A DNA stretch of 39,308 nt, from the IMG/VR virus record IMGVR_UViG_2541047861_000010, positions 1 to 39,308 of that record. One strand, given 5' to 3'. The stretch comes from a virus (taxonomy: Duplodnaviria; Heunggongvirae; Uroviricota; Caudoviricetes). Shown piece after piece: positions 1 to 6,134 of the stretch (positions within the stretch are counted from its first letter, which is position 1; the number at the start of each line of letters is the position of its first letter). The notes beneath the pieces are model-generated. The model saw only the letters and a list, made by a program, of their open reading frames with translations. It did not search any database and was not told where the DNA came from. The position numbers were made by a program, and so were the translations under genes.

Positions 1-2109
1 TTACACCATACTGTTAACCTGGCCGGGTAATTCGCTAGCTGGAATACGAAAGGTATACCAGGCATAACGACAGCGTTTCCACAGGCTGGAGAAATGGAGA
101 TGATAAAGGAAATCTGCAATAATTTCGTTATCTGGATATAAAGACTCGGCAAAATGTGTCCAGCGCGCACTGAGTTTCATGTTAAACAGTTTTTCATCTT
201 CTTTGTTACCATACAGGCGCGACAAAGTAATCATTGCTTCGAGCGTACCTTTATTCGCTTCTTCTTGTACCTGTTGGAGGTGCAAATGAGCAAGTGAGAG
301 TTCTTTCACCTCAAAGATATTAAGTAAAAAAAGCCCCCATGCTTTTTCATGTCCAGCTTCATGAGCCAGAAATAAATTGTCAAGGAGATTTTTTTCATAA
401 ATAGCCCGTGTTTCTTTAGAAATTTCTTGTTTATTTAGTGCCTGGTAGCAGATAGCAATGCTAAAATAAATATTTTGTAGATCTTGTTGATGTTCGCTAT
501 AACCATAATTTTTTACCAGTGGATAAGATACCGAGCTATGGAAATTTAGGTCATCTTGAAGTATTTTAAGTGCCCGTCGAAAATACTCCAAAGCTGTAGA
601 TGGTTCATAAGGTAATTTTGTATTGTCTTCCTTATCCAAATATTCAAGAGCAACTAAATTTAATGCGGCAGGAATATTTCTTTGCTTACCAATTGTCGCA
701 AGCGGAATGAAATAATCAGAAAGGTCAAACCAACTCAAATCTTTTATTGCCGACCGCCAATTATGATTGTATTTAATGTCACTAGCTTTTTCCAGCCAAG
801 CATCGCCCTGCCCTTCATCTTTTTCAAAACCCAAAATACCCTCTCGCTGGAAAAACCCCCTATAAATAACAGGTGTAGCATAAGTTGTATTCTGTGAATT
901 TTGGCAGATAAAATTATATATCCAGAATGAATCTGGATAATAACTTAATGCAAATTTTATCGCGTACGCAGTGTAATAATTATTGAGCTTCATGTCTTCC
1001 ATCACCGCTCGCTGTATACAGCACCACAACTTATCGTGATCGTTCTGCTTGTTATAGCAGGCAAGTAACCACTCTAGGGCATTATGGCGACATTCCTGAA
1101 ATTGTGCGTACTGAGCAATATTCTCTGCTAAGTCGATTGCATATTGTTGCTCCTCGGGCGCAATGTCCTCAATGCTGACATCTCGGTAATCATCCCACCA
1201 AAGTAAGAGATCCATATAGTCATGTTCTTCGGTAGATAAGTGCTTACAGGTTACTGAATCCAGCAATTCGGAAATTTCTTTATGCGACCCTCCCCAGCGT
1301 GGCATTCGAAATGGTATATATTCAACAAAAGGATAAAAAGTGTGAGGAAAAATAGTCAGACAAACAGAAAGCCAATATTTTTGCCCACCATCATCATCAT
1401 ACTCAGGAAGTATATTGGGGCGAGGCAAAACGGGGCATATTGCATGCTCAAACGAAAGTCCGGAATACGCCATCAACGCTTCCACTTCTTGCGGGGAGCG
1501 GCGGTGATAATTTTTCAGTGCGATCATTAATGGTATTCCTGCGACACTATCACCGTTAAGGTGTGCCGCCAGCCAGGCTGGCTGACCAAATACTTTTGAG
1601 TTGGTGCTGGTAAGTAATGCAGCCATCCATTGTCGTGGGTCACAATCAATTGCTTTAAGTGTAGCGATGACCATTTGTTCATTACATGCACCAGCACAAA
1701 GCCACATTGCATGTGTGGTATCATTTGCCCAGCCATAACTGCGATATAACCATGCACGGTGATTCCAGTATTGTGCTTCGGCAAGCCAGGCATGTGTAGA
1801 ATGAGGTCTTGCTTGCTGCCAGGTTTTAATGAGTCTTAAACCTTCTGTTCCGGCATCAACTAGCGTGTTCATATCATAAAAATAGTTGCACATTTGGGTC
1901 CAGGATAAAAAATAGCGCTTTTCAGCCTGACGAGAAGTGAAACTCTCCTGTAATACCTGGTTATAAATTTCATCTAGTTCCTGATAACGTTTTTCTTGTA
2001 ACATATAAGGAATATTTGCGATTTGCCATTTTCTCTCAAGAGTATTAAGTGGCATTTTTTGGTCACACATCTTTTGCATTGCACTGAGTAAACGAGCATC
2101 CTGTTCCAT
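1..2109 (-). CDS. Hypothetical cytoplasmic protein, 702 aa, Trp/Tyr-rich; last gene of an AT-rich three-gene operon
   Basis: Full ORF 1-2148; start placed at internal ATG 2107-2109 (MEQDARLL) because AAGGA sits 6 nt upstream and this avoids overlap with the upstream gene. Stop codon is at window bases 1-3. No hydrophobic N-terminus. No family recognised from memory. Confidence 0.6.
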   Translation of the reverse strand: MEQDARLLSAMQKMCDQKMPLNTLERKWQIANIPYMLQEKRYQELDEIYNQVLQESFTSRQAEKRYFLSWTQMCNYFYDMNTLVDAGTEGLRLIKTWQQARPHSTHAWLAEAQYWNHRAWLYRSYGWANDTTHAMWLCAGACNEQMVIATLKAIDCDPRQWMAALLTSTNSKVFGQPAWLAAHLNGDSVAGIPLMIALKNYHRRSPQEVEALMAYSGLSFEHAICPVLPRPNILPEYDDDGGQKYWLSVCLTIFPHTFYPFVEYIPFRMPRWGGSHKEISELLDSVTCKHLSTEEHDYMDLLLWWDDYRDVSIEDIAPEEQQYAIDLAENIAQYAQFQECRHNALEWLLACYNKQNDHDKLWCCIQRAVMEDMKLNNYYTAYAIKFALSYYPDSFWIYNFICQNSQNTTYATPVIYRGFFQREGILGFEKDEGQGDAWLEKASDIKYNHNWRSAIKDLSWFDLSDYFIPLATIGKQRNIPAALNLVALEYLDKEDNTKLPYEPSTALEYFRRALKILQDDLNFHSSVSYPLVKNYGYSEHQQDLQNIYFSIAICYQALNKQEISKETRAIYEKNLLDNLFLAHEAGHEKAWGLFLLNIFEVKELSLAHLHLQQVQEEANKGTLEAMITLSRLYGNKEDEKLFNMKLSARWTHFAESLYPDNEIIADFLYHLHFSSLWKRCRYAWYTFRIPASELPGQVNSMV

Positions 2110-2119
2110 AGATATCCTT

Positions 2120-2836
2120 TTAATTAGGTTCAAAAATTTTAAATTCATTCCACGGCAATTTTTTCCAGTTACTGGATGGATCTTTCAACCATGCAGTGAC
2201 TTCCTTTAAATCACGGTTCGCAGTGGCGACGGGGGTATCGTATATCATTAACCATTTTTGTCGGGCGCGAACATAAGCACTGGCATAATCTTCCCATGAA
2301 GCGAAACAATCTTGTGCTCTTTGAGCATTCAGTAATAACACTATCCAGGCCTGGTTTTCATCGCACCAGCCTAAACCGGCGATGCAACGAGTTAAAAAAG
2401 CAGTGCGCATACAGTCAAACGCCAGCCCATCCAGAACCTGGCCTTGTGCTGCCAGTTGTTCGTAAAAATCATGTGGAGAATTACCAAGCCCTGTAGCCCA
2501 GCGCTGTAATATAACGCCAATTTGTTGACGGAAATCTTCGTTGCTTTGGTAAGTTTCTGTTCCTAGCTCTTGTTTAACCTGTAGTGCAAGTTGTTGACGC
2601 TTATCATCAGTCAACTTTAAATCTAACGTGAAGCCATTTACTGACAGTCCATTACGACGAGCAACTATATCACCAATTGCTAATGCCCACTTACGTCTCT
2701 TTGTTGCTCGTCTTTTGTCCTTGATTAGATCCTTTTCTTTTTCTTTAGCAATAAAAGCATCGATTTGTGGTTTGTTTTTTTTGTATCTATAGATAAAAAT
2801 AAATATTGCGACCAGGAGAACAATGATAAGACTCAT
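2120..2836 (-). CDS. Hypothetical membrane-anchored protein, 238 aa, single N-terminal hydrophobic helix
   Basis: ORF with ATG start; N-terminus SLIIVLLVAIFIFIYRY followed by KKNK looks like a signal anchor. Start overlaps stop of upstream gene (TAATG). Possibly DUF1266-like, unverified. Confidence 0.6.
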   Translation of the reverse strand: MSLIIVLLVAIFIFIYRYKKNKPQIDAFIAKEKEKDLIKDKRRATKRRKWALAIGDIVARRNGLSVNGFTLDLKLTDDKRQQLALQVKQELGTETYQSNEDFRQQIGVILQRWATGLGNSPHDFYEQLAAQGQVLDGLAFDCMRTAFLTRCIAGLGWCDENQAWIVLLLNAQRAQDCFASWEDYASAYVRARQKWLMIYDTPVATANRDLKEVTAWLKDPSSNWKKLPWNEFKIFEPN

Positions 2837-4050
2837 TATTTTTCAACCTCTGACAGGGGTAAGTAATGAGATGTCTGTAATGTCAAACTCTCTATCTCAA
2901 AGGAAATGTTGCTGATATTTTGACCTGCAAATTGCGGATGCCACTCAGCGCCAGGGAATAACATTTCCGCAGAAGTAGCAACTATAGGGTCAATAGCATT
3001 AAGATAATGTAACTTATCAGGTGCGCTGTGTAACAGTAACCACTGCAACTCCACTGAAGGATTTGTAAAATGTTCTAATAAATGAAAGTTATTATGTAGT
3101 ACGCTTAGTAAAAAACTGGTTTCGTATACTTCCGTTACATATTTCCACCCCTGATATTCAGGTGTATTTTCATAAACAATACCCATACCTTCACAATCAC
3201 TATGTCGAACTGCTTGTGGTGATAATAGTTGCAAAAGAGACAAAACATCGTCCGCATATTTTTTAACTGGATGACGATTTTGCTTACCTTTTATTTGATC
3301 AATTTCAAGTGAATCACCAACAACATTGAGAGCAATAGTAACATGAGGAATATTATTATTATCACGCAAACTGAATAACCGTAATTTATGTTGCTCAATT
3401 TGATTTGCATAATACTCACCATAACCACCGGTAAGATTTTTTCGATCATCAAACTGGCCTACGCAATGTTGCATATGCCATGATTCATAAGCCATTTCAC
3501 GACGAAGGTTCGAATGACTGGCATCAAACTCAACAATTTTTCCGTCTGGCACATCAAGTATTGACTTTACAGTATTTTGTTCACTCGGCTGCCACCCTTT
3601 CTCGCGTCGTTGAAGCATCTTTTCATGCTCTTCTTCACGCATTCTGAACGCAACGTAGCAGGTTATGCGCTGTAGTTTTGATTCCAGACGGGTACCACAT
3701 TTCCTGGAAAGAAATTCCACCAACTCCCGTTCTTTGGTTAATATTTGTTGATGATCGGTTTCGATATAATAAAGTGTCGCAGTTGATACTGAGGCAGTAT
3801 TAAACTTCGATACCAGCCATTCCGGGATTACATCATCATTTTTATTAAACAGTGAATATTCTGCAAGCGAGTTAATTTGTTGCACCATTGGAAAGTCACT
3901 AATTAGCCATCGATAAAAATGGTTGAGTAACCATTTTTGGATGGTCTCATTATCCTGGCGAAACAGACTTCTTTGCAAAATTGCTGTTTTTACTTCCGGG
4001 GCATTAATTACATCCCTTGCATTATAATTCTGGTGAATATTTCCAGTCAT
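2836..4050 (-). CDS. Hypothetical protein, 404 aa; first gene of AT-rich three-gene operon
   Basis: ORF with ATG start at 4048-4050. Hand-counted GC of a 60-nt sample in this island is about 32 percent, versus about 60 percent in a prophage structural-gene sample (23161-23220). No confident domain assignment. Confidence 0.6.
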   Translation of the reverse strand: MTGNIHQNYNARDVINAPEVKTAILQRSLFRQDNETIQKWLLNHFYRWLISDFPMVQQINSLAEYSLFNKNDDVIPEWLVSKFNTASVSTATLYYIETDHQQILTKERELVEFLSRKCGTRLESKLQRITCYVAFRMREEEHEKMLQRREKGWQPSEQNTVKSILDVPDGKIVEFDASHSNLRREMAYESWHMQHCVGQFDDRKNLTGGYGEYYANQIEQHKLRLFSLRDNNNIPHVTIALNVVGDSLEIDQIKGKQNRHPVKKYADDVLSLLQLLSPQAVRHSDCEGMGIVYENTPEYQGWKYVTEVYETSFLLSVLHNNFHLLEHFTNPSVELQWLLLHSAPDKLHYLNAIDPIVATSAEMLFPGAEWHPQFAGQNISNISFEIESLTLQTSHYLPLSEVEK

Positions 4051-4537
4051 AACATCCGCCCGTGTTTATTATATCACTCAAAGCAATAATTGTTGACTAT
4101 AGATTTTTTATCTAAATCAGCATGGTTGCAGGTACATACTCAAGTAAGCCACTCAAGAAAATAACGTAAACTCAATAGTGGCAGCGTCACAAACTTTGGA
4201 AATTATGTCTTATATTTGCAGTTTATTTTAGTGAATAATTGAGATAAATGACATTATTTTACATCCTCAATAATTCAGGCTGTAAGAGGACGGCAAATAC
4301 ATTCATAATTATCAGGGGATGAACATTCAGGAAAGTAGTCAGTATCGTCAACTTTTTCTTTTATCACTACATGAAGATTTCGTGTAGATACTCCCATCTC
4401 TGCCACTTCTCCCCTCACATTTACACTGGAGCTAAACCCGCCGATTGCGCTACAATGCCCGCCCTTAAAGTGGGGGCACTCCCCTAACCGCTTCATCAGG
4501 TGAAGCGGCTCTGACCTGTCATCAGAACGAGAGAATT

Positions 4538-5934: not shown

Positions 5935-5983
5935 TAGAAACCGATCACATACAGCTGCATTTATTAAGGTTATCATCCGTTTC
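5935..5983 (+). promoter_or_regulatory. Putative cyaR promoter region (candidate -10 TATCAT at 5971-5976; possible CRP half-site GATCACA upstream)
   Basis: Position immediately upstream of the cyaR 5' end; cyaR is known to be CRP-dependent. Motif match is by eye and weak. Confidence 0.35.
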
Positions 5984-6070
5984 GCTGAAAAACATAACCC
6001 ATAAAATGCTAGCTGTACCAGGAACCACCTCCTTAGCCTGTGTAATCTCCCTTACACGGGCTTATTTTTT
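5984..6070 (+). ncRNA. cyaR: Small regulatory RNA CyaR (RyeE), Hfq-dependent, with intrinsic terminator
   Basis: Sequence GCTGAAAAACATAACCCATAAAATGCTAGCTGTACCAGGAACCACCTCCTTAGCCTGTGTAATCTCCCTTACACGGGCTTATTTTTT matches recalled E. coli cyaR; ends in a hairpin (CCCTTACACGGG) plus U-tract. Confidence 0.85.
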
Positions 6071-6071: not shown

Positions 6072-6134
6072 CGCGTAATACAATGAAATAAAAGGATTTA
6101 TTTCTGGTCACGTCCACACATTGACCACATCGAC

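Follow-up and report, generated by a model that had tools for sequence, protein, structure and literature searches.

Acyltransferases of the GCN5-related N-acetyltransferase (GNAT) fold can work with the assistance of helical-repeat proteins, as in eukaryotic NatA, which combines Naa10 with the tetratricopeptide-repeat (TPR) protein Naa15, and in Hat1–Hat2–Hif1. The PcfJ family (PF14284) takes its name from PcfJ of the Enterococcus plasmid pCF10. In Escherichia coli K-12, the duplicated triads ybeQ–ybeR–djlB and ybeT–ybeU–djlC lie next to hscC (locus L095, 674000–686000); each comprises a Sel1-repeat gene, a DUF1266 gene and a J-domain gene, the latter two overlapping by 4 nucleotides (nt), and literature searches gave only passing mentions of the K-12 DUF1266 proteins, which have no established function. 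Here we describe a three-gene module that encodes a PcfJ-like protein, a DUF1266 protein and a DUF4034 protein, and that lies beside yegQ at the start of a 39,308-nt stretch of DNA (IMG/VR record IMGVR_UViG_2541047861_000010, positions 1–39,308; hereafter, the window). The module is real, conserved, essentially unstudied and widespread in beta- and gammaproteobacteria. Its three proteins very probably form one functional unit, and we tentatively propose, at a little short of an even chance, that this unit is a membrane-tethered, repeat-scaffolded, GNAT-like transferase complex.

The module shares with NatA- and Hat1-type complexes the pairing of a candidate catalytic subunit with a helical-repeat protein of about 700–800 amino acids (aa). 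Like the K-12 triads, the module pairs its DUF1266 gene with a Sel1-like one and couples the translation of this DUF1266 gene to that of a third, and its DUF1266 protein is related to YbeU (hhalign probability 88.8%); in K-12, however, the third partner is a J-domain co-chaperone, and the Sel1 proteins are smaller and lack DUF4034. The triads therefore mark the combination of DUF1266 and a helical-repeat protein as a recurrent device with varying third partners, which supports a tether or scaffold role for the two putatively non-catalytic proteins and also keeps alive the adaptor explanation weighed below. In Salmonella, the yegQ locus carries SAIDI-1, an array of small orphan immunity genes of type VI secretion (T6SS) and contact-dependent inhibition (CDI) systems (PMC7400221). 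SAIDI-1 uses the same chromosomal interval for AT-rich, horizontally acquired cargo, but the three-protein module pre-exists at the Salmonella locus and is not part of it. A published analysis describes the DUF4034 gene as conserved at the Salmonella yegQ locus, and the sole phenotype on record nearby is a weak and unconfirmed hyper-swarming screen score (1.55-fold) for deletion of STM2133, a gene of this interval (PMC4219756). We found no paper centred on the three domain families or the Salmonella locus tags, only passing mentions.

A homologue search with the PcfJ-like protein returned 224 proteins, some of them 600–690 aa long and also carrying DUF1266, from Klebsiella, Salmonella, Serratia, Citrobacter, Buttiauxella, Burkholderia, Variovorax, Pseudomonas, Lysobacter, Rhizobium and other genera. 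Across a survey of 80 species-level genome loci, the PcfJ-like and DUF1266 genes were adjacent and co-oriented in 78, six of which had them as single open reading frame (ORF) fusions; in the two remaining loci the contig was too short or ended inside the gene. A DUF4034 gene lies downstream of the pair in 36 of the 80 loci; in its place, a TPR-like gene of about 790 aa lies immediately upstream in 42, and two loci have neither. The locus of a Rhizobacter metagenome-assembled genome (L026:10005–14044) has two tandem DUF4034 genes after the pair.

Fusions link all three components. The PcfJ-like and DUF1266 domains are joined in 12 of 98 aligned relatives, DUF1266 and DUF4034 are joined in protein P0136, and P0221 carries PcfJ-like, DUF1266 and TPR regions in one 774-aa chain, with the signature motifs of both domains retained. 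Some fusions lack the amino-terminal transmembrane helix that is described below, so association with the PcfJ-like protein, and not the membrane anchor, appears to be the constant.

The PcfJ-like protein matches PF14284 marginally above the gathering score (26.2 versus 25 bits, E = 7.5e-6, residues 141–268), and 94 of the 98 relatives match the same family at E ≤ 1, many of them under the cutoff. About 37 residues are invariant across the 98 aligned sequences, in which mean column identity is 27%; they include E185, E189, H195, C196, R229, Q252, K254, G255, K256, Q257, N258 and D285. Judged from the alignment, this set, including E185, E189, H195–C196, R229 and D285, is consistent with a ligand or active site. 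The AlphaFold2 model is confident (predicted local distance difference test (pLDDT) score of 89) and consists of a helical amino-terminal domain, an alpha/beta domain at about residues 160–305 and a helical carboxy-terminal region. Foldseek matches for this model are to ESCO1/Eco2, RibT, SpeG, YhbS, L/F-transferase, FemX and NatD, the best at E = 0.02 and none at or below 1e-3.

In the model, the elements of residues 161–294 follow the GNAT order as far as beta5, beta1-alpha1-alpha2-beta2-beta3-beta4-alpha3-beta5; the complete GNAT fold continues with alpha4-beta6. Predicted fold class and element order would both agree with GNAT acyltransferases. GNAT motif A, Q/R-x-x-G-x-G/A, forms the coenzyme A (CoA) pyrophosphate loop between beta4 and alpha3. 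An invariant loop of the PcfJ-like protein, Q252-I-K-G255-K-Q257, lies between predicted beta4 (247–254) and alpha3 (263–276), and this conserved Q-x-x-G-x-Q would thus sit at the motif A position, a placement that comes from the model and textbook topology and not from a structural alignment.

An exhaustive HMMER search returned 2588 clusters at E ≤ 1e-3 and 52 at E ≤ 1e-30; the subfamily of the module therefore makes up a small part of an extensive PcfJ superfamily. Remote members keep the same most-conserved stretch, beta2-beta3-beta4 with K-G-K-x-N. The window subfamily differs from them in its chromosomal location, in its own amino- and carboxy-terminal helical domains and in having obligatory partners of the DUF1266 and helical-repeat kinds. 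Among the remote relatives with a PcfJ domain, several are multidomain proteins of 1100–3300 aa, two of them with recognisable InPase or DUF7178 domains. The giant proteins with a PcfJ core (among P0257, P0338 and P0253) include a 1691-aa chain with InPase, a 2284-aa chain with DUF7178 and a 3332-aa chain. The InPase domain (PF18823) was described from ‘polyvalent’ proteins of mobile elements, and by their domain make-up the giant PcfJ proteins give the impression of resembling such proteins.

The two other proteins fall into the families that a first-pass annotation of the sequence had suggested for checking, DUF1266 and DUF4034, by Pfam profile search. DUF1266 (PF06889) covers residues 94–229 of the 238-aa protein with 68.7 bits (cutoff 27). 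The membrane anchor that the annotation had read from this protein is likewise supported, by a Kyte–Doolittle 19-residue score of 2.09 at residue 1 and by a predicted helix at residues 2–53. The model (pLDDT 85) has a single amino-terminal transmembrane helix, a basic stretch and a helical bundle; this fold has no meaningful relative in the PDB, and a PDB sequence-profile search was also without a match. The transmembrane helix is kept in 10 of 10 divergent DUF1266 partners that were aligned. Neither the PcfJ-like nor the DUF4034 protein has a hydrophobic segment. DUF4034 (PF13226) matches at 339.7 bits (cutoff 21.3) over model positions 2–274 of 274 and residues 43–319 of the 715-aa ORF. The 702-aa protein is rich in Trp (3.4%) and Tyr (6.3%), as the annotation had noted. 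Its carboxy-terminal half resembles Sel1-like helical repeats: the family profile matches the Sel1-repeat protein 6ur7 (E = 8e-5, positions 406–516) and, weakly, SEL1L (E = 0.17), and two relatives at 35% identity have precomputed PF08238 (Sel1) matches. The 702-aa window protein itself has no Pfam Sel1 match.

These features suggest a mechanism. The three products would come together as a single complex on the cytoplasmic side of the inner membrane. The PcfJ-like protein would be the working subunit, with a very divergent GNAT-fold domain, and would probably act as a transferase whose donor is of the acyl-CoA type or a comparable phosphorylated molecule. The DUF1266 protein, with its single membrane pass, would bind and tether it; we infer that the DUF1266 domain lies in the cytoplasm because it must share a compartment with the PcfJ-like protein, which has no signal. 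The 702-aa protein would be a helical-repeat scaffold that recruits a target or partner, and the complex would act on a cytoplasmic or inner-leaflet target. What the analysis shows directly is the operon, the conserved gene pair with its large helical-repeat companion, the natural fusions, the predicted class of fold and the lack of phage or defence signatures; that the proteins form a physical complex, face the cytoplasm and catalyse a reaction, and which donor and substrate they would use, belong to the proposal.

In several Enterobacteriaceae outside E. coli, the baeR–yegQ interval has long housed the module. In Klebsiella, Citrobacter, Buttiauxella and Salmonella, the genes baeR, PcfJ-like, DUF1266, DUF4034 and yegQ follow one another on one strand, without yegP; in Burkholderia, Variovorax and Pseudomonas the contexts of the triad vary. 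The GC content of the triad is typical of the host in Salmonella, Citrobacter, Buttiauxella, Burkholderia and Variovorax, and about 9 points under its flanks in Klebsiella. Among enterics, the three module proteins are 56–82% identical, compared with 86–97% for BaeR and YegQ, so the module either evolves fast or is swapped as a unit by recombination in the flanks; the pattern of pairwise identities is alike for all three proteins. Carriage of the module by phages or true plasmids was considered and rejected, as there was no phage match and just eight matches fell on non-mobilizable replicons of at least 300 kb.

The copy in E. coli is inverted and rich in AT and reaches at most about 66% identity with any other copy; we interpret it as a xenologue whose low-GC donor has not been sampled. 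It is part of an island of about 5.2 kb, whose left boundary, by alignment with K-12, falls just past the yegP terminator and whose right boundary falls at about window position 4446. In ATCC 11775, the type strain, baeR is followed by yegP, a gene for a 201-aa hypothetical protein, DUF4034, DUF1266, PcfJ-like and yegQ, with all four island genes on the minus strand. The first-pass annotation had placed yegP of K-12 at the position that the cluster occupies; this order keeps yegP between baeR and the island, and yegP is thus retained, upstream and beyond the window. The cluster is present in 298 of 5426 complete E. coli genomes (5.5%), always as a single chromosomal copy, and the K-12 yegP–yegQ spacer is only 146 bp. 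Carriers include UTI89, APEC O1, NU14, F11, Nissle 1917 and ATCC 11775; several B2-type genomes are 100% identical to the window, and the cargo is found mainly in extraintestinal pathogenic and B2-type strains.

A further approximately 155 genomes match only the first 57 bp or so of the left end of the island. The one inspected among them, NCTC9113, has a ParD/ParE pair at the site (L096:4170–4764). Like the island strains, it has a left frame of about 62 bp (L001:8247–8310) and a right frame of about 30 bp, both of which K-12 lacks; K-12 homology, in the yegQ upstream region, restarts directly after the right frame. Because the inspected ParDE strain and the island strains have these frames in common, the yegP–yegQ interval is a cargo-exchange hotspot. 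Its spacer occurs in E. coli in at least three forms: empty (K-12), ParD/ParE and the 5.2-kb four-gene island. There is no integrase between yegP and yegQ.

Within the window, GC content over positions 1–4050 is 39.7% (34.6–44.8% in 500-nt windows) compared with 54.3% in yegQ, and GC at third codon positions is 30–35% in the three genes compared with 64.5% in yegQ, a gap of about 30 points. The annotation had been right that the cluster lies well under yegQ in GC content, although its figure of 32%, from a small sample, was too low, and the codon-position gap, the short K-12 spacer and the patchy distribution agree with its view of a horizontally acquired island. That view applies to E. coli, in which the copy is patchy and AT-rich; in Salmonella, Citrobacter and Buttiauxella the same three genes, with the GC content of the host, lie at baeR–yegQ, and no homology to a metabolic pathway was found. 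The three genes (Table 1) are coupled on the minus strand, as had been proposed. The stop codon of the PcfJ-like gene overlaps the start of the DUF1266 gene by one base (TAATG), and 10 nt containing AAGGA separate the DUF1266 stop from the start of the DUF4034 gene. The longest ORF of the latter reaches position 2148 (715 aa); we use the start at 2109, as do RefSeq and all homologues of about 703 aa. The longest stop-free run is 727 codons, around four times the maximum of 177 in 200 shuffles.

Table 1 Module genes and associated elements, in window coordinates
Feature	Positions	Strand	Description
PcfJ-like gene (operon gene 1)	2836–4050	minus	404 aa
DUF1266 gene (operon gene 2)	2120–2836	minus	238 aa
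DUF4034 gene (operon gene 3)	1–2109	minus	702 aa; stop codon is window bases 1–3
Candidate promoter, best sigma-70-like match	4068–4096	minus	TCAACA, 17-nt spacer, TG-TATAAT (extended -10)
AT-rich non-coding island end	4051–4416	none	35.7% GC over 4051–4445; between operon start and hotspot frame
Right hotspot frame (ACATTTACACTGGAGCTAAACCCGCCGATT)	4417–4446	none	Shared with the ParDE strain, absent from K-12

Several results weigh against the proposal of a GNAT-like transferase complex. The last position of the invariant loop is Gln where GNATs have Gly or Ala, and the carboxy-terminal part of the fold departs from the canonical GNAT, with a beta5-beta6 hairpin before the next helix. The fold tools gave no aligned residue ranges, so that the placement of their matches on residues 160–305 is our own. 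No Pfam acetyltransferase family is matched by the PcfJ-like protein or any of the 98 relatives, its profile finds no PDB sequence at E ≤ 10, and comparison with one neighbouring bona fide GNAT gave an hhalign probability of 0.3%; because sequence-level support is lacking, we file the protein only as having a GNAT-like fold. The DUF4034 protein and the TPR-like partner of about 790 aa are not homologous (hhalign 1.4%), so the role of the third component may be generic. The module also has traits of conflict genes: fast divergence from its flanks, a patchy distribution in E. coli and a hotspot that alternatively holds ParDE.

Such traits lead to the explanation that the module is an unrecorded anti-phage or abortive-infection system, in which the repeat protein would be the sensor and the PcfJ-like enzyme a membrane effector. 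This is the second of the novel readings that we entertain, as a new defence system, and we consider it unlikely. It would fit an AT-rich island scattered over a small fraction of E. coli genomes, the far quicker divergence of the module proteins relative to their flanks, a hotspot that in the one inspected genome holds a toxin–antitoxin pair as its other cargo, and a superfamily that extends to giant multidomain proteins with InPase. The interbacterial-immunity islet at the Salmonella counterpart locus (PMC7400221) points the same way. Searches of PADLOC-DB 2.0 (5027 models), however, gave no match for three of the four island proteins and, for the DUF4034 protein, a sole weak and partial match to PDC-S32 (E = 0.0013, 73 of 237 model positions). 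PHROG returned nothing for the PcfJ-like, DUF4034 and 201-aa proteins and just noise at E ≥ 0.03 for DUF1266, and an NCBIfam scan of the island proteins gave no useful match. Nor is the neighbourhood rich in defence genes: the 130 flanking ORFs at 22 diverse loci yielded PADLOC matches for no more than about two generic kinases and about two helicase-like proteins, with no enrichment, and they form a heterogeneous set of housekeeping genes for metabolism, transport and regulation with no Pfam family in more than three loci. Together with the absence of phage or true plasmid copies, and with the fixed chromosomal position and host-typical GC content in Salmonella and Citrobacter, these results speak against the defence or toxin/immunity module that the first-pass annotation had thought compatible with the gene cluster.

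For a toxin–antitoxin or toxin–immunity cassette in particular, in which the PcfJ-like protein would be the toxin and DUF1266 would neutralise it, the tight coupling of the genes and the ParDE pair in the same hotspot might be cited, as might the fact that some GNAT-fold enzymes, such as TacT and AtaT, are type II toxins. A toxin–antitoxin pair does not fit because the supposed partners, toxin and antidote, occur as single fused polypeptides in many lineages. The proteins, at 404, 238 and 702 aa, are also far above the size of type II components; there is no secretion signal, no toxin or delivery domain and no T6SS or CDI neighbour; and the module is stably chromosomal, at a locus described as conserved in Salmonella (PMC7400221). 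We regard such a cassette as very improbable. A non-enzymatic adaptor or chaperone-targeting module, in which the PcfJ-like protein would be a binding or client subunit, draws on the weakness of the GNAT similarity and on K-12, where ybeR and ybeU each stand beside a Sel1-repeat gene and an overlapping J-domain gene near hscC and where YbeU is a distant relative of the island DUF1266 protein. Yet dense invariant polar and charged residues in a family of such low column identity resemble an active or ligand site, the PcfJ-like protein has no homology to DjlC (hhalign 0.3%), and the surroundings of the module have no conserved gene for an Hsp70 or a J-domain protein, which leaves the adaptor explanation doubtful.

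If the transferase proposal is taken further, the module might be a hitherto unrecognised bacterial machine for modifying proteins or the envelope, with a GNAT-like catalytic subunit, a helical-repeat clamp and a DUF1266 tether, that is, a prokaryotic, membrane-bound analogue of Nat- and Hat1-type complexes. We give this more specific version a rather low probability; were it true, it would provide the first functional handle on the PcfJ superfamily, DUF1266 and DUF4034, and a GNAT-like fold would by itself give a biochemical class to the PcfJ superfamily of more than 2500 clusters, including the giant multidomain proteins. Three unrelated ‘DUF’ annotations become one testable unit, for which the analysis offers a putative catalytic subunit, a handful of residues to mutate and natural single-chain fusions suited to structural work. 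Well-studied strains, namely UTI89, APEC O1, NU14, Nissle 1917 and the E. coli type strain, carry the module, and the yegP–yegQ or baeR–yegQ interval is documented as a cargo-exchange hotspot that may be empty or hold ParDE, the island or, in Salmonella, SAIDI-1.

The fourth island gene (L001:8335–8940) lies just left of window base 1 and has 45% GC. Its 201-aa product has an amino terminus like that of a signal peptide or lipoprotein, co-occurs with the island in about 300 genomes and has no match in Pfam, PADLOC, NCBIfam or PHROG. It is unlike the fourth gene after DUF4034 in Salmonella and has no relative in the 80 loci; because no relative stands beside the module elsewhere, we treat the gene as separate cargo, and it may encode, for example, an orphan immunity-type protein.

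The candidate promoter (Table 1) ends 18 nt before the ATG of the PcfJ-like gene. Promoter-like sites in the region do not exceed shuffle expectation (10 versus a mean of 13.7), so it is position that argues for this candidate. Regulation of the operon by BaeR was rejected, as the BaeR-box motif (TCTNCANAA) is absent upstream of the operon; the motif is also not enriched in the window. A 73-aa ORF on the minus strand (4275–4496) spans the non-coding island end, the hotspot frame and conserved yegQ upstream DNA, and is probably spurious. Directly downstream of yegQ, the small RNA CyaR lies at window positions 5982–6067 (Rfam, 100.7 bits). Past yegQ and CyaR, from about position 6100, the window continues into a P2-like (Peduovirus) prophage that opens with ogr and gpD and is about 96% identical over around 23 kb to phages such as vB_EcoM-720R8; at this site K-12 keeps only the ogrK/yegZ remnant.

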